A DNA stretch of 64,000 nucleotides from Eremomyces bilateralis CBS 781.70. Taxonomy: Eukaryota. This document shows positions 1-58,189 of the stretch, one piece after another. The translations under genes and the position numbers were made by a program. The DNA is taken from assembly GCA_010015585.1 (NCBI GenBank), contig ML975159.1. The stretch is one strand, 5' to 3'. The notes beneath the pieces were generated by a model that worked only from the letters and a program-made list of their open reading frames with translations, did not search any database and had not been told where the DNA came from. How positions within the stretch are numbered: the stretch's first letter is position 1; each line of letters starts with the position of its first letter.

Positions 1-1816
1 AGGGTGCTGTACACCTAGCTCCTTCTCCCTCCCTTCTAGCGCTCGCCGGTTCAGCTTCTCCGCCTCCGAGTACTTCCCCTGACTTTGCAGCACCAACGCC
101 AGGACGGTAACACTTATTAGTGTCAATTGGTCGTCCTGCCCATTTGCCCTCTCTCCAGCATTCAGCGCCTTTATTGCTATGTCGTGTGCTATCTTATACC
201 TCCCTGTCATCCACATATACCACGCAGAATTTGTAAGAATCTTAGCCCAGTCTTTCAAAAACTTCTCAGTCACCGGCTCTGCGCCATATAACGATTCAAC
301 ATGCGGAAGCAGTTGCTGGCACTTCGCCCAGTTCTTAAACTCGCCGTTGGGAAGCTCTCGTGCCATTAATTGTACGAATTGTTGCTTCCACCACTCCGCG
401 TCGCTAAACGACGATAGCCAGATCCGTGTGCAGAACTGCACCAGGGCGTGCATCTCACACACGTCAGTCTCGGTTGTCGCAGAAACAAGGGAGTAAGCTT
501 GTAAGGTATCAAAGTCTTCGTCGAATTCATTATTAGCCTCGTCTTCGCAGCCTGGTTTTGCCACTGTCCTACTGACTGTCCTACTATGCCTTCGAAGTAT
601 AGACTCTGGAATTCCTTGGGGGTTAAAGAAGCTCATAAGCGATAGCAAGTCTGCAGCAGAAGGCCGTTCTTTACGGATACGCTCAAACGATATCTGCCAC
701 GTCGTTACCACCGAGTTAGATGCACTATCATCCCTACGGATATCGTCTATATCCCAATTTAGGAGATTTTCTCTCTTGTTATTGTTTCTTCGAAACTCGT
801 CGAGGTACTTAGAGATCGTCATTCGAGCTCGCCGGTTGATGTATGCAGCGGCCTGGGTGATTGCAAGAGGGATGTAGTCGAGAGCACGCAGCAGATCAAT
901 TGTGTCGTCGGTCAACGCGTCCTGCAGTAGCTTGTTTCGGAGGAGCTGTAGGCCTTGGGCCTCGTCCATTGCCTGCACCTCCTTGATATTCTTATAGCCT
1001 CCTGCTAGTCCGGCTGCTGCATCCTTGTTCCTAGAAGTGATCAGGATCGATCCGTTGGGGCTCTGCGGGAGGTAAACCGCCAGCGATGCCGGCGGGCTTT
1101 CGGACGGCTTGTCTTGCTCGCCCTTGCGCGACGAGAAGGTCTCGACGTCGTCGACGTTGTCGAGGACCATTGTCCATTGGCCGTTTGTTTCCTCGCATAG
1201 CCAGTTACGGACTAGCCGTAAAATATCGGCCTTCGGATTCTCTCGCCCCGGAAGCTCTAACCTGTCTGCAATATCTCTGTACGCTTCTTCAAATCGGGCC
1301 TTAGTACTAGCGTATACCCAGAAGATGGACGTTTGCGGCGATGTATCGCGGATATCGTAGCAGTATCGGATAGCTATTTGCGACTTCCTACCTGCTATTA
1401 GCCTAATAGTGTAAAGAACAGATACTAACATACCCTACGCCGCCAAGGCCGACGAGCGCGGCGCGAGCGCCCGGTCTTGCGCAGTTGTCGTGGATCCACG
1501 CTAGAATGTCCGGCCGGTCGACGAAGTCAGGGTCTGGTGCGAACGGGACGGTGGAGAAAGGGGTGCGTTTTCGGCTCGGTCCGTCTGTGCGCTGGTTTAA
1601 GCATTGATATTTGATATTTGATAATAGATATTGGGTGGTCATGAATCCTATGGTGTGCTCACTTGAAATAATGAAGTTCGTCGTCCCGCCAGCCGCAGTG
1701 GTCGTCCCGGCAATGACGGTGTCACCCTGAATGCCCCCAGTGAAGTCGCTCGGTTGTTGCATGCTTTGACTCGGATAACTCAGATGCGAGGCAGGCGAGG
1801 TGTTTCTTGTGGACAT
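1..1816 (-). CDS. NLR-like STAND protein (short N-terminal putative amyloid motif + NB-ARC + TPR); 3' end runs off the window
   Basis: ATG 1816; introns 1662-1585 and about 1433-1388. Spliced P-loop GLGGVG|KSQ, Walker B MVLDNVDD, ILITSRN, YIPLAITQAAAYI, EMHALVQ, then TPR unit QGKYSEAEKLNRRALEGREKELGVQHP at the window edge. No stops seen in the last exon. Confidence 0.9.
601..1474. repeat. Inverted repeat arm 1 (partner 3680-4553)
   Basis: Reverse complement aligns without gaps to 3680-4553; about 19 mismatches by manual count; P-loop intron identical. Confidence 0.95.
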
Positions 1817-2195: not shown

Positions 2196-5100
2196 ATGGC
2201 GTTCTGGAAGCTGTCGAAGGGCAAAGGAGGTGCTCAGACGGCCCTTGCCGAGCCCCCAACAGATGAGCTATTCTCAACGGTTGGAGATTATGGCCTTCAA
2301 ACGCTATCCGAGAGCGTGGATGACATTATCGAGTAAGCGATCTAGCATACCTCATTAACTCCGCCAACCAGTAAAATCAGCATCGTTTTCGTCCACGGTT
2401 TAACCGGCAATCGCGAATCGACTTGGACCGACAGGACTGGCAACGTGTTCTGGCCAAAAGATCTACTCGCAAAAGATCTCCCAAAGGCGCGAGTCATCAC
2501 GTTTGGCTACGATGCCGATATCGTTCGAGGATTGAGCACGGCCGGAAACAGTACACTCAGAGACCACGGGAAAGCTTTGGCTGAGGACCTGGCTATGCGG
2601 AGGAAGAAGACAGATTCTGTAAGACTTGTTGCGGCGCAATTTAAACCAAGAGCTCTAGCGACGCAAGAGTGTCGTCCCGGCGCACATACCGGGCATTTAC
2701 GGTCTTTGCTGTGATGCACGTCAAAAGAGCCGCAAAGAGCTGTCGCCGAAGTAGCCGACATATATTGTTGGAAGGCCGTTAGCAAACGCTGACTCAAGTA
2801 ACAGAACCTTCGTCCTCTGATCTTCGTTGCGCATAGCCTTGGTGGATTGGTTGCTGAGCAGGCGAGTGATCCTCCAATATATTTACCAGCTACCAGTCCA
2901 CTAATACCCCAGTGCAGGCACTGCTTGTCTCTCGCGGCTCGGCCCAGCAGCATGTTAAGGACTTGCTTGAAAGCACCGTGGCGATTGCGTTCATGGGTAC
3001 TCCACACCTCGGATCGAATATTGCAAATTGGGGACATCCAATCTCGAAACTTTCAAACCTGCTGCGCAAAACCAACTCCAAGATTGTAGGAGTATTACAG
3101 CCGGGCTCTGAAATGCTCGCCACGGTCCAACAAGAGTTTCATATCATGCTTGACGACCGAGGTAGAAACGACAACAAACATATTAACATCTTTTGTTTTT
3201 ATGAAGAAGTCGGATACCCTGGGCTCGGCGAGGCATGCAATTCCTCTAATATCCTCTATAGCCGAATTCTAGTGCTAAGCTCTTACAGATAGTACCGAAG
3301 CAATCAGCGATCCTTACGGCGTATCCAAACATTGGCATTCATGCAACCCACACAGGGATGACAAAGTTCAAGACTTCCGAGGACGCCGGCTATGTGCGAG
3401 TACATGATCGGCTTTGGCTCTGGTATAATATTGTTGAAAAGAGCGTGTGTCCGGTCCCGCGCCCGAAGACCAGGATGCAACAAACGAGCAACTTCAACTT
3501 CGGAGTCCCGTCAAGACAAGGTAGATGCTCTCTCGGAACGTAGCTAACCCGTGGCTAACACCAGTGCAGAGGGGGCAAGCCGAGAACGGAAGCCCTTCTC
3601 CACCGTCCCGTTCGCACCAGACCCTGACTTCGTCGACCGGCCCGATATTCTAACGTGGATCTGCGACAAGTGTGCAGGGCCGGGCGCTCGCGCCGCGCTC
3701 GTCGGCCTTGGCGGCGTAGGGTATGTTAGTATCTGTTCTTTACACTATTAGGCTAATAGCAGGTAGGAAGTCGCAAATAGCTATCCGATACTGCTACGAT
3801 ATCCGCGATACATCGCCGCAAACGTCCATCTTCTGGGTATACGCTAGCACCAAGGCCCGATTTGAAGAAGCGTACAGAGACATTGCAGACAGGTTAAAGC
3901 TTCCGGGGCGAGAGAATCCGAAGGCCGATATTTTACGGCTAGTCCGTAACTGGCTATGCGAGGAAACAAACGGCCAATGGACAATGATCCTCGACAACGT
4001 CGACGACGTCGAGACCTTCTCGTCGCGCAAGGGCGAGCAAGACAAGCCGTCCGAAAGCCCGCCGGCATCGCTGGCGGTTTACCTCCCGCAGAGCCCCAAC
4101 GGATCGATCCTGATCACTTCTAGGAACAAGGATGCAGCAGCCGGACTAGCAGGAGGCTATAAGAATATCAAGGAGGTGCAGGCAATGGACGAGGCCCAAG
4201 GCCTACAGCTCCTCCGGAACAAGCTACTGCAGGACGCGTTGACCGACGACACAATTGATCTGCTGCGTGCTCTCGACTACATCCCTCTTGCAATCACCCA
4301 GGCCGCTGCATACATCAACCGGCAAGCTCGAATGACGATCCCTAAGTACCTCGACGAGTTTCGAAGAAACAACAATAAGAGGGAAAATCTCCTAAATTGG
4401 GATACAGACGATATCCGTAGGGACGATAGTACATCCAACTCGGTGGTAACGACGTGGCAGATATCGTTTGAGCGTATTCGTAAAGAACGGCCTTCTGCTG
4501 CAGACTTGTTATCGCTTATGAGCTTCTTTAACCCCCAAGGGATTCCAGAGTCGATACTTCATAAGCATAGTAGGAACGGGGCAGAATTAAACGGCGAAGG
4601 CGAGGCTGACGCCGCCTTCGAAGAAGACTTTGATACCTTACGGACATATTCGCTTATAGCAGCGACAGCCGAGACCGATATCTATGAGATGCACGCGCTA
4701 GTGCAATTCTGCACGCAGGTCTGGCTGTCGTCGTTTAGCGAGGCGGGGATATGGAAGCAAAGGTTTATAGGGCTGATGGCACAGGAGTTTCCAACTGGGC
4801 AATTCGAGAACTGGGGGAGGTGCCAGCAGTTACTTCCGCATATCGAATCCCTATACGACAAAGAGCCGGCGACTGACGAGTCCTTGAAGGACTGGGCTCA
4901 GATTCTTACAAATGCTGCATGGTACATGTCGATGATAGGGGGGTATAAGAGAGGACAAGACATAGCAGCAAAGGCGCTTAAGGCTAGAGAAAGGATATGT
5001 GGACAGGAAGACCAGTTAACACTAATAAGTGTTACCGTCCTAGCATCAGTGATCACAAGCCAGGGGAAGTACTCGGAGGCAGAAAAGCTGAACCGACGAG

Positions 5101-6236
5101 CGCTAGAAGGGTACGAGAAGGGGCTAGGTGTACAGCACCCAGATACGCTGACGAGCGTGGACAACCTGGCGGGCGTACTGAAATATCAGGGGAAGTACTC
5201 GGAGGCGGAGAAGCTGAACCGGCGAGCGCTAGAAGGGAGGGAGAAGGAGCTAGGTGTACAGCACCCNNNNNNNNNNNNNNNNNNNNNNNNNNNNNNNNNN
5301 NNNNNNNNNNNNNNNNNNNNNNNNNNNNNNNNNNNNNNNNNNNNNNNNNNNNNNNNNNNNNNNNNNNNNNNNNNNNNNNNNNNNNNNNNNNNNNNNNNNN
5401 NNNNNNNNNNNNNNNNNNNNNNNNNNNNNNNNNNNNNNNNNNNNNNNNNNNNNNNNNNNNNNNNNNNNNNNNNNNNNNNNNNNNNNNNNNNNNNNNNNNN
5501 NNNNNNNNNNNNNNNNNNNNNNNNNNNNNNNNNNNNNNNNNNNNNNNNNNNNNNNNNNNNNNNNNNNNNNNNNNNNNNNNNNNNNNNNNNNNNNNNNNNN
5601 NNNNNNNNNNNNNNNNNNNNNNNNNNNNNNNNNNNNNNNNNNNNNNNNNNNNNNNNNNNNNNNNNNNNNNNNNNNNNNNNNNNNNNNNNNNNNNNNNNNN
5701 NNNNNNNNNNNNNNNNNNNNNNNNNNNNNNNNNNNNNNNNNNNNNNNNNNNNNNNNNNNNNNNNNNNNNNNNNNNNNNNNNNNNNNNNNNNNNNNNNNNN
5801 NNNNNNNNNNGAGAAGCTGAACCGGCGAGCGCTCGAAGAGAGGGAAAAGGAGCTTGGAATAGATCATCCTGATACACTAACTTCCGTCTACTGCCTTGCC
5901 TATCTTTTACACAAGCGCAGGCGATATAGGGAGGCGTCCGAGCTCTACCAGAGAGCATCCAATGGCTACAAGCAGAAGCTCGGTTCCCAGCACCCGAAAA
6001 CTATTGCGTGTCTTAATTATTTTACAGCTATGCAACAGGAGGCAGGGGAGGAAAGACAAGGACTGAGCAGGACATCAGTTGATAATGATAAAGAGGAGCT
6101 TAGAGAGATACCCACCGATGGTGCTAGTATTCTGCATGGCAGTGAGGCTATGCCTGAGCAAACCAGCAGCTTGAAGAGCAAAAATGACTCATTTTACACG
6201 CACTTGAAAACGAGGATGCGTAGAAAAGATCTATAG
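2196..6236 (+). CDS. NLR with N-terminal SesB-like alpha/beta hydrolase + NB-ARC + TPR repeats (all-in-one architecture)
   Basis: Spliced: IVFVHGLTGN..TW, FWPKDLL, RVITFGYDA, LIFVAHSLGG (nucleophile elbow), FMGTPHLGS, CFYEE, HATHTGMTKF. A phase-1 intron (3521-3569) joins in frame to EGASRERKPFSTVPF, followed by GLGGVG|KSQ, ILDNVDD, EMHALVQ and TPRs. Introns 2333-2380, 2619-2803, 2862-2917, 3233-3288, 3521-3569, 3721-3766. N-gap 5267-5810. Confidence 0.88.
3680..4553. repeat. Inverted repeat arm 2 (partner 601-1474)
   Basis: Same alignment as arm 1. Confidence 0.95.
5020..5990 (+). repeat. Highly conserved 126-bp (42-aa) TPR tandem array, partly in an assembly gap
   Basis: Units QGKYSEAEKLNRRALEGxEKxLGVQHPDTLTSV at a 126-bp period; gap 5267-5810 lies inside the array. 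Confidence 0.9.
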
Positions 6237-40268: not shown

Positions 40269-42500
40269 ATGGCAGGCAGACGAGTCCTCGACGTCTCCAA
40301 GCTCGTCTCCGCGACCCGACACATCGCGAAAGCTCACCTCGACCTCCGGAGTCGCCAATATGACGTATTCGCAAAGACATCCACCCTCGCCAAGGCCGCG
40401 AAGAACCAGACGGATCGAGTCACTGTGACTCTCAGTGCCGCCATCGCGATCGCACAGCGACTGGCAGAAGAGCCAATCAACAGCGGGACAACGGGTCCGC
40501 AGACACACGGGACGGATGGAAGTGCGAGTCCGCGAGGGCAGGCTTCGACAGGCGAGCGACCGAAAGATGCCTCGGGGATAAATCAAGACCATCATTACCA
40601 GCCGTCGGAGAAGAATGCAGCGTTCGAACCGGCACCGATTTCGGATCTCAAGCCGTCGCAGGAACAGGCTGGTAGACATGCACTTCCAGACGGGACAATT
40701 CCGTCAGAAGGGTTGGATGCAAGGGAAGAGACGGCAGGATATGACACGTATGGTCGAATTCCAGCTACAGAGACTGCAAAATCTCCACTGGAGGACCAAC
40801 GGACCAAGGTGGTCATACCGCAACGAAGTTCTGCTGTACAAAGATCGGAGGATGGGTCTATCAACGCCGACACATTCGGTACCGCGAGTGCAGATACGCA
40901 GAAAGCTGTGCTGGAGGATACTGCAGCTGAAGAGATACCAGAAGGCATCGACATCAATGTCTTCCGTACGACGCGAGGAAAGACGCTCCTTGGTTCCTCG
41001 AAACCATCTCAAGAACCGAAATCTACAGCCACGCAAATAGACGCAGCACCCGATGACATTCAGCAGCTCGCCAAAGCTATCGCGGAGGACCCCATCGCGG
41101 AGGACCCCATCACCCAACCCTCCACCACCCCCCAACCANNNNNNNNNNNNNNNNNNNNNNNNNNNNNNNNNNNNNNNNNNNNNNNNNNNNNNNNNNNNNN
41201 NNNNNNNNNNNNNNNNNNNNNNNNNNNNNNNNNNNNNNNNNNNNNNNNNNNNNNNNNNNNNNNNNNNNNNNNNNNNNNNNNNNNNNNNNNNNNNNNNNNN
41301 NNNNNNNNNNNNNNNNNNNNNNNCAACATGACCCGCCTCGTCGCCAAGCTCTCCCGCATGCGCGGCGCCGCCCTCAAGCTCGGCCAGATGATCAGCTTCC
41401 AAGACCTCAAGCTCCTCCCCGGCCCCATCCAGGACGTCATGCAGCGCGTCCAGGACAGCGCCGACTACATGCCTGCGCGCCAGCGCGACCGCGTGCTCGC
41501 CACCAGCCTCGGCGCCGACTGGCGCGACGCGTTCGCGGAGTTCGACGAGGTGCCCATCGCCGCCGCGTCGATCGGCCAGGTGCACCGGGCGACGCTGCGC
41601 ACCGGGGAGACGGTCGCGGTGAAGGTGCAGTACCCCGGGGTAGCGACATCGATCGACTCGGACCTGAACAACCTCTCGCTTCTGCTCACCGCATCGCGCC
41701 TGCTGCCGCGCGGGATGTATCTCGAGAAGACCATCGCGAACGCGCGGACGGAGCTGGCGTGGGAATGCGACTACGTGCGGGAGGCGGAGTGCGGGACTCG
41801 CTTTCGAGAACTACTCGCCGACGACGACGCGTTCACCGTCCCTCAGGTCTTCCCCTCCGCGTCCGGAAGAGAAGTCCTCACCGCCGAACTCATGCACGGC
41901 ACCGCGGTCACAAAAATTCCCGACTTATCCCAGGACGAACGCGACTGGATTGGCACCCATCTCCTCCGCCTCTGCCTCCGCGAGATCACTGAGTTCCGCT
42001 ACATGCAAACTGACCCCAACTGGACCAACTTCCTCTACAACCGCGCCACGCACAAGCTCGAGCTCCTCGACTTTGGCGCCACGCGCGCGTATCCGCTAGA
42101 ATTCATCGGGCCGTATGTCGGCATCCTCCGCGCCGCCGCCGCCGACGACCGCGCCACCATCCAATCCCTCTCCGTACAGCTTGGTTACCTCACGGGGTCC
42201 GAGAGCGCGGCGATGGTAGACGCGCACGCCGACTCGGTGCTGGCACTGGCAGAGCCGTTCGGTGCGCAGGCGGACGCGGTGTACGATTTCCAGGACCAGA
42301 CGATCACAGAGCGGGTGCGGGGGCTGATTCCGACGATGTTGAAGGAGCGGTTGGCGCCGCCGCCGGAGGAGACGTATAGTCTGCATCGGAAATTGAGTGG
42401 GGCGTTTTTGTTGTGTGCGAGATTGGGGAGTCGGGTTAGGTGTAGGGAGTTGTTTGAGGGGGCGGTGGAGAGGTTTGAGGGGAGGAAAGGGGAGGTGTAA
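40269..42500 (+). CDS. COQ8: Atypical kinase Coq8/ABC1 (N-gap 41139-41323)
   Basis: LSRMRGAALKLGQ, PIAAASIGQVH, VAVKVQYPGV, MQTDPNWTNF, LLDFGATR, PPPEETYSLHRKLSGAFLLC. Confidence 0.95.
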   Translation: MAGRRVLDVSKLVSATRHIAKAHLDLRSRQYDVFAKTSTLAKAAKNQTDRVTVTLSAAIAIAQRLAEEPINSGTTGPQTHGTDGSASPRGQASTGERPKDASGINQDHHYQPSEKNAAFEPAPISDLKPSQEQAGRHALPDGTIPSEGLDAREETAGYDTYGRIPATETAKSPLEDQRTKVVIPQRSSAVQRSEDGSINADTFGTASADTQKAVLEDTAAEEIPEGIDINVFRTTRGKTLLGSSKPSQEPKSTATQIDAAPDDIQQLAKAIAEDPIAEDPITQPSTTPQPXXXXXXXXXXXXXXXXXXXXXXXXXXXXXXXXXXXXXXXXXXXXXXXXXXXXXXXXXXXXXXNMTRLVAKLSRMRGAALKLGQMISFQDLKLLPGPIQDVMQRVQDSADYMPARQRDRVLATSLGADWRDAFAEFDEVPIAAASIGQVHRATLRTGETVAVKVQYPGVATSIDSDLNNLSLLLTASRLLPRGMYLEKTIANARTELAWECDYVREAECGTRFRELLADDDAFTVPQVFPSASGREVLTAELMHGTAVTKIPDLSQDERDWIGTHLLRLCLREITEFRYMQTDPNWTNFLYNRATHKLELLDFGATRAYPLEFIGPYVGILRAAAADDRATIQSLSVQLGYLTGSESAAMVDAHADSVLALAEPFGAQADAVYDFQDQTITERVRGLIPTMLKERLAPPPEETYSLHRKLSGAFLLCARLGSRVRCRELFEGAVERFEGRKGEV

Positions 42501-56959: not shown

Positions 56960-58189
56960 GCGATTGAAGACGTACCTTATCTCCCGATTCTCGGATTTCT
57001 TTCAAGAGCGAGGCGCTATGGGGCTACTACAGCATGGACGACAAATTGGACTTTGTCTTCAATAGAAAACGGTCTACCCGGATCGCTAAGAATTTTGGCT
57101 TGACAAAGCGATACCACTACCATCTACGACCAAATGACCGCTTTTATTCAACACTCATGCCACTTCCCAAATTTTTCTTATTTTCGATATGAATAGGTAT
57201 TGTTCACTTCACTATTGTTTTCTAGAACTGCTTAATCGGGAAATCCTAACCACGCGACAACATCCTCGCCACTCGGGAATCCAGCTCTCGTCTCGGCTAT
57301 TCGTCGTCGTCAACCCCCAGACTTCCCCGCACCTACACCTCCCCCCACCCCGCCCCCGGCTATCCCAACTCACGCTTTGTCTCCCCTAACGGAATATGTC
57401 CGCTCCACGTCCGTCGTATTCTCACGGCTCCTAATGGAAAACTGCGCTTGTGAGCGCGTTCCACTGTCCCTCCACCGACTACTGCTACCCGTAAACTGCC
57501 AAGTTCGTATCTCCTCGCCTTAGGTCTGGCCAGTGTGAACTATCGAGCTTTGTCAAGGAACCGGACACTCTTGGCATTGGTGAGCTAACGTCGTCGTTAG
57601 ACTCCTTAACTCATTCCCGGCTCCAAACGGAGTATCAGACGGGACAACATGCCACTCATTGTTGTTCCGTTGAATCAAACCAAACGTCCTAGTTAGAACA
57701 CCCTGGTAGATTCTTATTCCCCCCCCCCCCCCCCCCCCCCNNNNNNNNNNAACTATGAATCAACTTCGCCAGTCGCCACCCTTATTCCCGCCAGATTAGA
57801 TGAGACTCAAGGCCACGCATATCCGCTCGACTCGTGATCATCCCCCGCGACCGACGTCAAGGTCGGAGCAACATCGCCCAGTTGCCCCTCCACACTGCGA
57901 ACTCCCGTCCCGCCGCCCACGCTCCTAGAATTTAGCGACCTCGTGGGAAATATGACCTGCATGCACCAACCTGTTCGCCTGCTTCGCCGCCCTCGCCGGT
58001 CTAGACCGTGACCAATCTCCATCCCTCCATTGTCACCGGCAAAATCTGGCCCCACTTCGGTGAGTTCGTTGGCACCGGCCCTTCTGGGGAAACCAACGAA
58101 TGTGGGGGTGATGGAGAAACTTGCTGATGGTCTCGAAACCTGCTCGTCAGCCGTGTGGGAATAGATGGGAATAGAAGGGAATAGGGGGG

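Follow-up and report, generated by a model that had tools for sequence, protein, structure and literature searches.

What is the role of the short peptide that precedes the nucleotide-binding domain of a receptor gene at the left end of a 64,000-nucleotide stretch of contig ML975159.1 from Eremomyces bilateralis CBS 781.70 (assembly GCA_010015585.1), here called the window? The gene lies on the minus strand and encodes a NOD-like receptor (NLR) containing NB-ARC and TPR domains. A sequence-only reading of the window had proposed that its first exon ends in a candidate amyloid signalling motif, placed directly ahead of the NB-ARC region and possibly belonging to a less characterised family. The element in question is the following:

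1664..1762, minus strand: motif-coding end of exon 1, MQQPSDFTGGIQGDTVIAGTTTAAGGTTNFIIS (translation, gene model, family profile)

The peptide itself is as that reading had given it: positions 1665-1762 of the minus strand translate exactly to MQQPSDFTGGIQGDTVIAGTTTAAGGTTNFII, codon 1664-1666 contributes S as the next residue, and the codon that intron 1 splits begins with base 1663. The explanation favoured here, with a probability of about 0.6, is that 1664-1762 encodes the signalling motif of an NB-ARC/TPR NLR, and that in relatives this motif templates a separate executioner with a HET domain. The motif family is probably new and undescribed. By analogy with known systems the contact between NLR and HET protein would be of amyloid nature, and a partner for the NLR of the window would be expected somewhere in the E. 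bilateralis genome.

A conserved motif at the N-terminus of NB-ARC/TPR receptors

A phmmer search with the 51-residue N-terminus against 1.84 billion representative sequences returned six matches, among which P0009, a 39-residue metagenome open reading frame (ORF) with the sequence MQRPSDFNAAINGHNVIAGPYTAAGGTTNFNFGYPSRQG, is the sole relative; P0004-P0008 were rejected as repetitive, unrelated sequences matched in several stretches. Successive profile searches extended the set to 14 proteins and then to 35 at E<=1. These 35 matches consist of the window's own protein, two HET-domain proteins, 31 NLRs or NLR fragments and one false match, P0043, which was rejected for its repeats containing PATPTAAGGTT. 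The Pfam domains NB-ARC, DUF7779 and TPR are present in 18 of the 31 NLRs or fragments. The N-terminal position on an NLR that had been proposed for the window gene is therefore a property of the family, as NB-ARC/TPR NLRs of 16 named species share the conserved motif at their N-terminus, and metagenome fragments do so too. E. bilateralis and Zopfia were checked to be Dothideomycetes, and the two Monosporascus species among the carriers to be Sordariomycetes; most of the 16 species we take to be Dothideomycetes.

Across 35 instances, the consensus reads S.F.[HQ]G.I.G..VIPGT.TAAGGTTNF[NH][FI]G.PP.Q, or in short form S.F.G.I.G..VIPGT.TAAGGTTNFNFG, with a core family length of approximately 30 residues. 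Seven positions are invariant in 19 NLRs (F25, G31, I35, G43, G44, T45 and F48), and the linker behind the motif is variable. A profile built from 11 N-termini of NLRs from other species finds exon 1 of the window among 1879 six-frame ORFs with an E-value of 4.4e-10 (35.9 bits), and the window copy retains all 18 near-invariant positions of the family. Judged by these sequence comparisons, the stretch is more than a product of chance composition. One part of the original description needs to be narrowed: the absence of proline from the core holds for the window copy, which reads VIAG, but not for the family, in which VIPG is found in 31 of 35 aligned instances.

The start of the protein is also a family feature. 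In 16 of 19 full-length NLR models the GGT[TM]NF core begins at residue 22-27, and in the remaining three, including the public model P0003 of the window gene, a Met stands at the family start position within a longer model. Because this Met is kept in relatives, the ATG at 1762 (Met 1762-1760) is likely the true start, the same Met that the sequence-only reading had used; a start downstream of the motif had been named there as a reason to abandon the idea.

HET-domain proteins as partners of the motif

Two of the profile matches, P0022 (295 residues) and P0042 (298 residues), are HET-domain proteins according to Pfam and carry the motif at their C-terminal end. A metagenome scan with P0042 yielded 79 HET loci. 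When the motif profile was run against the 15177 six-frame ORFs of these loci, only L001 and L002 were matched, with two copies each. The first copy lies at the end of the HET ORF, 8 residues ahead of the stop codon; the ORF itself closes with ...VFYGPISGRYVVPATHVTGGTVNFDFREGRDVSQ-stop. The second copy forms the start of a divergently transcribed NB-ARC/DUF7779/TPR gene that is laid out like the window gene, with a motif exon, a PFSTVPFAPDPDLVDRP...GLGGVG exon, an intron in the P-loop and the NB-ARC/DUF7779/TPR region. Both loci thus present a HET gene head-to-head with a motif-bearing NLR. A profile built solely from NLR N-termini matches the HET tails of L001 and L002 with E-values of 1.7e-7 and 1.8e-7 (15177 ORFs), and reciprocal tblastn of the NLR start and the HET tail gives 1e-4 and 3e-5. 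The DNA identity of 82-89% between L001 and L002 indicates that the two loci are related but distinct.

Their comparison also allows the coding pattern to be followed across the start codon. Among the 31 codons of the NLR motif, 5 differ synonymously and 1 non-synonymously between L001 and L002; in the in-frame stretch upstream of the NLR Met the corresponding numbers are 6 and 12 for 53 codons. The differences turn from a non-coding-like pattern to a mostly synonymous one exactly at the Met, and this codon comparison shows purifying selection on the NLR-side motif.

An NB-ARC match is present in 21 of the 79 HET loci, 19 times in fused HET-NB-ARC genes and twice in the split pairs. The HET domains of the fused genes are 58-66% identical to that of P0042 and their NB-ARC is of the same type. 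The motif profile search detected the motif in none of the 19 fused genes, and the eight linkers inspected are short and unrelated to it. Since the motif occurs in the split pairs and is absent from the fused genes, it goes with the separation of receptor and effector and is not a general linker.

The generic characteristics of NLR-associated amyloid signalling motifs were taken from Daskalov 2012 and Wojciechowski 2022. Counted from Met 1762, the window gene has a short conserved N-terminal extension on an NLR without any other effector domain. A homologous effector C-terminus is found only among relatives (P0022 and P0042, besides the HET ORFs of L001 and L002), adjacent effector and NLR genes are found in relatives as well (L001 and L002), and the same effector domain occurs fused to an NLR without the motif in the 19 loci described above. 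Beside the window's own NLR, the only trace of the motif is a remnant at 3475-3519, and no motif-bearing partner was found there. An effector sharing the motif, which the sequence-only reading had called for, consequently exists in relatives, twice adjacent to a motif NLR, but not in the window. In related fungi, the gene and domain layout of the family agrees with what defines an amyloid signalling motif at the genomic level, the partner domain being HET.

Templating or docking between receptor and effector

In the proposed mechanism, oligomerisation of the NLR would bring its flexible N-terminal motifs together, by analogy with NWD2/HET-S and PNT1/HELLP, and the clustered motifs would fold into a cross-beta nucleus of the beta-arch type. 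This nucleus would template the homologous C-terminal motif of a separate executioner, which would then cluster and become active. In related fungi the executioner would be a stand-alone HET (TIR-like) protein encoded head-to-head with the NLR.

Structure predictions are consistent with a flexible motif at both ends. In the AlphaFold2 model of P0003, made with 19 NLRs, residues 1-74 have a predicted local distance difference test score (pLDDT) below 50 and no secondary structure (mean of the model 61.8). In that of the L001 HET protein, made with 18 HET sequences (4 of which cover the tail), residues 253-311 likewise stay below 50 and lack secondary structure (mean 67.1), and the HET domain is folded, with pLDDT mostly between 66 and 94. 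The models weakly suggest that the motif is a flexible appendage and give no suggestion of packing onto the NB-ARC domain.

Several observations weigh against the templating model or its extension to E. bilateralis. Both AlphaFold2 models derive from shallow alignments and have a modest mean pLDDT. Most members of the family contain one or two prolines in the motif (HGPI, VIPG), which is unusual for amyloid cores, albeit compatible with turn positions. The evidence for gene pairs comes from two related loci of one metagenome, and the HET-side motif differs between them by 1 synonymous and 2 non-synonymous changes in 26 codons, too few for a statement about selection. The window copy is the most divergent member on the NLR side: its score is 54 bits, compared with 61-90 bits in the remaining full-length NLRs, and NFIIS stands in its tail where the family has NFNFG. 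Among the 22 largest other ORFs of the window (14580-59978), no known effector was recognised, with HET, HeLo, patatin and PNP_UDP all absent. For E. bilateralis, the database searches brought up no further motif-bearing protein, so the NLR of the window may be an orphan.

The motif could instead act in trans as a homotypic docking peptide between NLR and HET protein that is not amyloid and works through beta-strand addition or as a short linear motif, an explanation that appears unlikely but deserves some weight. The conserved prolines and histidines of the motif would suit such a peptide, a profile search of the PDB with the motif returned nothing under E 0.1 and hence matched no solved amyloid motif, and the genomic evidence speaks to the pairing rather than to the physical nature of the contact. 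However, every studied NLR/effector pair of this layout uses amyloid templating according to the available portions of the relevant papers (PMC9815663, PMC5485727, PMC3321046), and the length, the richness in G, T and N, the alternating hydrophobic residues and the predicted disorder all fit the amyloid class.

A functional motif or a relic in E. bilateralis

Alternatively, the templating model may apply to the relatives and no longer to the species analysed here, in that the NLR has lost its partner and its N-terminal peptide has ceased to signal. This possibility, which is given a rather small probability, agrees with the lack of a partner in the window and in the database searches, with the divergence of the window copy and with the presence of a paralogue without the motif core. 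It is countered by the intact frame and the 18 near-invariant positions that have been kept. In addition, a contig of run X3, whose type (RNA) is a guess only, skips intron 2 of the gene and also covers the motif exon. A missing neighbour does not speak strongly for a lost partner either, as non-adjacent partner genes are suspected in other motif families, according to the portions of PMC9815663 that were available.

Comparison with known amyloid signalling motifs

Could the motif instead be a divergent member of a named family, that is, of HRAM, PP, sigma or PUASM? There is some resemblance, since the motif begins with F-x-G and is rich in glycine like PUASM, and since it is carried by an NB-ARC/TPR NLR with a lipase-like domain nearby, as in the PP system. 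Yet the probability of such a membership is slight. The Pfam motif models for HET-s, PP and sigma matched 0 of 14 members of the family at E<=10, nor did they match the window peptide, in a search run without a positive control; the PP model is PF17046, said to be misnamed SesB, and the sigma model is PF17106 (PMC12261475). The PP core is the pseudo-palindromic NxGxQxGxN, and PUASM is described as FxGxGxQxxGxGxF, occurring on NACHT or NACHT-WD40 NLRs with a PNP_UDP effector (PMC9815663); both patterns are absent from the family consensus. The sigma motif spans about 40 residues with three-fold submotifs (PMC5485727), and no three-fold submotif could be seen by eye in the consensus of about 30 residues. 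Moreover, a HET partner is not listed as an amyloid-controlled effector in the accessible text of PMC9815663, PMC5485727, PMC3321046 and PMC12261475. The original judgement that the motif is neither HET-s/HRAM nor PP nor sigma is borne out by the Pfam comparison, and the suspected less characterised family has emerged as a conserved one whose effector HET proteins carry the motif at the C-terminus.

Returning to the motif as a family of its own, its likeness to the described systems lies mostly in layout. The PP system of Chaetomium globosum and Podospora anserina (PNT1, HELLP and the lipase SBP) likewise has an NB-ARC/TPR receptor with an N-terminal motif that is repeated at the C-terminus of adjacent, separate effectors, including a SesB-like lipase (PMC5485727, PMC7885112). 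Here, by contrast, the partner is a HET domain, and the lipase-like domain in the window is fused to an NLR and not free. With NWD2/HET-S and HRAM, the family shares the logic of one motif at the N-terminus of an NLR and one at the C-terminus of an effector, encoded by adjacent genes, and also the existence of split and all-in-one architectures for one effector domain (PMC3321046). It differs from them in that NWD2 is a NACHT/WD protein with a HeLo effector, as opposed to NB-ARC/TPR with HET, and in that HRAM effectors usually have two repeats, whereas the HET tails have one. PUASM resembles the family in being recent, defined by the same in-silico criteria, glycine-rich and opened by F-x-G (PMC9815663), but its pattern is not found here, and the NLRs and effectors are NB-ARC/TPR and HET. 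The all-in-one HET-NB-ARC(-TPR) NLRs contain related HET and NB-ARC domains, but these are fused via a short, motif-free linker.

By effector type, the nearest analogue lies outside the fungi, in the bacterial amyloid signalling sequence (BASS) systems with TIR2 or an alpha/beta-hydrolase, in which an amyloid-type motif joins an NLR to a TIR-type enzymatic effector (bioRxiv 10.1101/2020.01.06.895854). The HET domain has been described as remotely related to TIR (PMC9815663). The BASS systems are prokaryotic, and they are likened to the present family by description.

With regard to novelty, Daskalov et al. (2012) sought pairs of HET and signal transduction ATPases with numerous domains (STAND), none of which met their criteria (PMC3321046). 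No HET effector with an amyloid motif was found in the available text of PMC9815663, PMC10197012, PMC12881547, PMC12258605, PMC13449251 and PMC12261475; the word HET in one literature passage is read as HET-S/HeLo in the light of the rest of that paper. Among the rows examined of supplement 2 of Wojciechowski 2022, no taxon of the family appears. The group NLR34 of that study was considered and rejected, as all of its rows listed, at least 25, belong to Tuber, Fusarium, Lomentospora or Pyrrhoderma, with NACHT wherever they have an annotated nucleotide-binding domain. The string GGTTNF had no occurrence in a full-text literature search, which does not extend to subscription papers.

Implications of a HET-associated motif

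The chances are about even that this is a further amyloid motif family and the first in which a stand-alone HET (TIR-like) protein is placed under amyloid templating by an NB-ARC/TPR NLR. In filamentous fungi, few cell-death modules are as common as HET domains. Forced clustering activates TIR domains in other kingdoms. If the templating model is true, the two-gene HET system would provide a handle to trigger HET on demand through the shared motif, and an effector tail seeded by the NLR N-terminus could show whether forced clustering activates HET as well. For the HET domain, the mechanism and structure columns of a 2025 review table read 'ND' in the part available (PMC12881547). The model would also add a fungal motif family to the four or five now listed in the accessible text of PMC12261475, and it would extend amyloid signalling to many NLRs of Dothideomycetes that appear as 'unannotated short N-termini'.

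Gene model and expression of the motif-coding exon

The public model of the gene, retrieved by database search, is P0003, a protein of 683 residues annotated as 'hypothetical protein P152DRAFT_507770 [Eremomyces bilateralis CBS 781.70]'. The exon limits were read from a comparison of P0003 with the window DNA. In the direction of transcription, the gene comprises, besides the motif-coding stretch:

1763..1816, minus strand: 18 in-frame codons MSTRNTSPASHLSYPSQS, part of the public model, upstream of the Met at 1762
1663, minus strand: 3' end of exon 1
1585..1662, minus strand: intron 1, 78 nt, GT..AG, in frame and stop-free
1434..1584, minus strand: exon 2, encoding the linker, the conserved stretch PFSTVPFAPDPDFVDRP and the P-loop's first half (GLGGVG)
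1388..1433, minus strand: intron 2, 46 nt, lying within the codons for the P-loop
1..1387, minus strand: exon 3, with the remaining NB-ARC, the DUF7779 winged-helix and the first TPR units; the gene leaves the window at its left edge

With Pfam, exon 3 gives DUF7779 and TPR domains, and the 137 residues at the N-terminus give no match. The open frame that contains the motif extends from 1403 to 1816, with an ATG at 1816 directly after a stop codon. As no relative has the 18 codons of 1763-1816, these are probably a 5' leader, to judge from the sequence comparison. Upstream of the motif Met, a KRPRL(R)LKPAWHPS..K.SC-type stretch was observed in P0011, P0012, P0014 and P0015 and at 5486-5899 (minus strand) of L001; it is in frame in some relatives and out of frame in L001, and may be a conserved leader element or an upstream ORF of these NLR genes.

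The X3 contig mentioned above skips the 46 bases of intron 2, which have GT..AG ends on the minus strand, and no such joint was seen in the DNA runs X1 and X2. The same contig is unspliced through intron 1 and reaches into the motif exon as far as 1683. Because intron 1 keeps the frame, its retention would not prevent translation of the motif; it would add 26 residues between motif and NB-ARC. It is very improbable that exon 1 is an annotation artefact of a protein that starts downstream and whose peptide is never made, for although intron 1 is retained in the only X3 contig spanning it, its retention keeps the frame, Met and motif are conserved in 16 species, and the codon pattern of L001 and L002 changes exactly at the Met.

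Further copies are hinted at by the contigs. In one X3 contig, the end of exon 1 (1663, minus strand) is followed by 14 bases with 2 differences from the start of exon 2, and the window contains these 14 bases nowhere else. Over 1601-1760, the summed depth of the contigs exceeds that of the flanks in X1, X2 and X3, depth being unfit for the ranking of genes. The joint and the raised depth together probably reflect a near-identical motif exon in a paralogue elsewhere.

The inverted paralogue

A second NLR gene, on the plus strand and at a distance of 390 bases, lies head to head with the first and has the following parts:

2205..3474, plus strand: lipase-like (alpha/beta-hydrolase-like) exons with VHGLTGN and AHSLGG, limits set by eye
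3475..3519, plus strand: motif remnant MQQTSNFNFGVPSRQ, with about 23 core residues gone (profile E 0.0046, alignment with P0009)
3554..5266, plus strand: the paralogue's NB-ARC/TPR module, which is 2-1602 copied in inverse orientation and is cut by a run of N at 5267

The remnant continues the frame of the lipase-like domain without a stop and lies just ahead of the intron in front of the NB-ARC exon. It was recognised through P0009, whose first 30 residues match the motif of the minus-strand gene and whose last 11 match MQQTSNFNFGVPSRQ of the plus-strand gene; P0009 thereby bridges both genes, and it follows that the paralogue has retained both ends of the motif without about 23 core residues. 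An internal MQQ in the remnant corresponds to the N-terminal MQQTSEF of P0013, P0020 and P0031, and the Met with which other NLRs start is thus retained. This arrangement suggests, from sequence comparison, that an effector gene was fused onto an NLR that began with the motif, and that the motif core was lost later. If the templating model is true, the paralogue would be a natural experiment in which the effector is fused to the NLR and the motif core is deleted, and such a deletion would be expected because the motif would serve signalling in trans only. Should the intron after the remnant be retained, a stop codon would be reached 8 codons on (3544-3546), giving a free lipase.

On the lipase-like exon pieces of the paralogue, Pfam supported no hydrolase or lipase family, and the ESM Atlas returned clusters of the DUF676/PGAP1 type only with scores below 0.9, a lead rather than a finding. 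A weak stretch of the motif profile at 3337-3369 (plus strand) within this domain, IGIHATHTGMTKF, is part of a 13-bit match and is probably due to chance. The 64-kb window contains no second full copy of the motif; beyond exon 1 and the remnant, no profile match fell below E 0.7.

Between the two receptors, positions 1602 to 2 of the minus strand align with 3554 to 5140 of the plus strand at 88.7% identity over 1601 nt. The identity is a mosaic, with 98-100% from 1402 to 803 and 68-84% further 3', a pattern that looks like gene conversion. Homology at the DNA level starts 18 bases ahead of exon 2, that is, within intron 1, and the first exons of the paralogues can therefore not be aligned as DNA. 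A DNA contig of X1 and X2 leaves the window sequence at 1603, the same point at which the homology starts. Intron 1 may be a joint for the exchange of N-terminal exons, and the X1-X3 contigs hint at further copies.

Three runs of N are present in the window, at 5267-5810 (544 bases, cutting the TPR region of the plus-strand NLR), 41139-41323 (185) and 57741-57750 (10). Of the 22 largest ORFs beyond the receptor pair, 12 match ordinary genes (Sec15, an RRM protein, a cyclin, AtuA, a CoA-transferase, chitin synthase, SARAF, an RFX factor, an AMP-binding enzyme and an MFS transporter).

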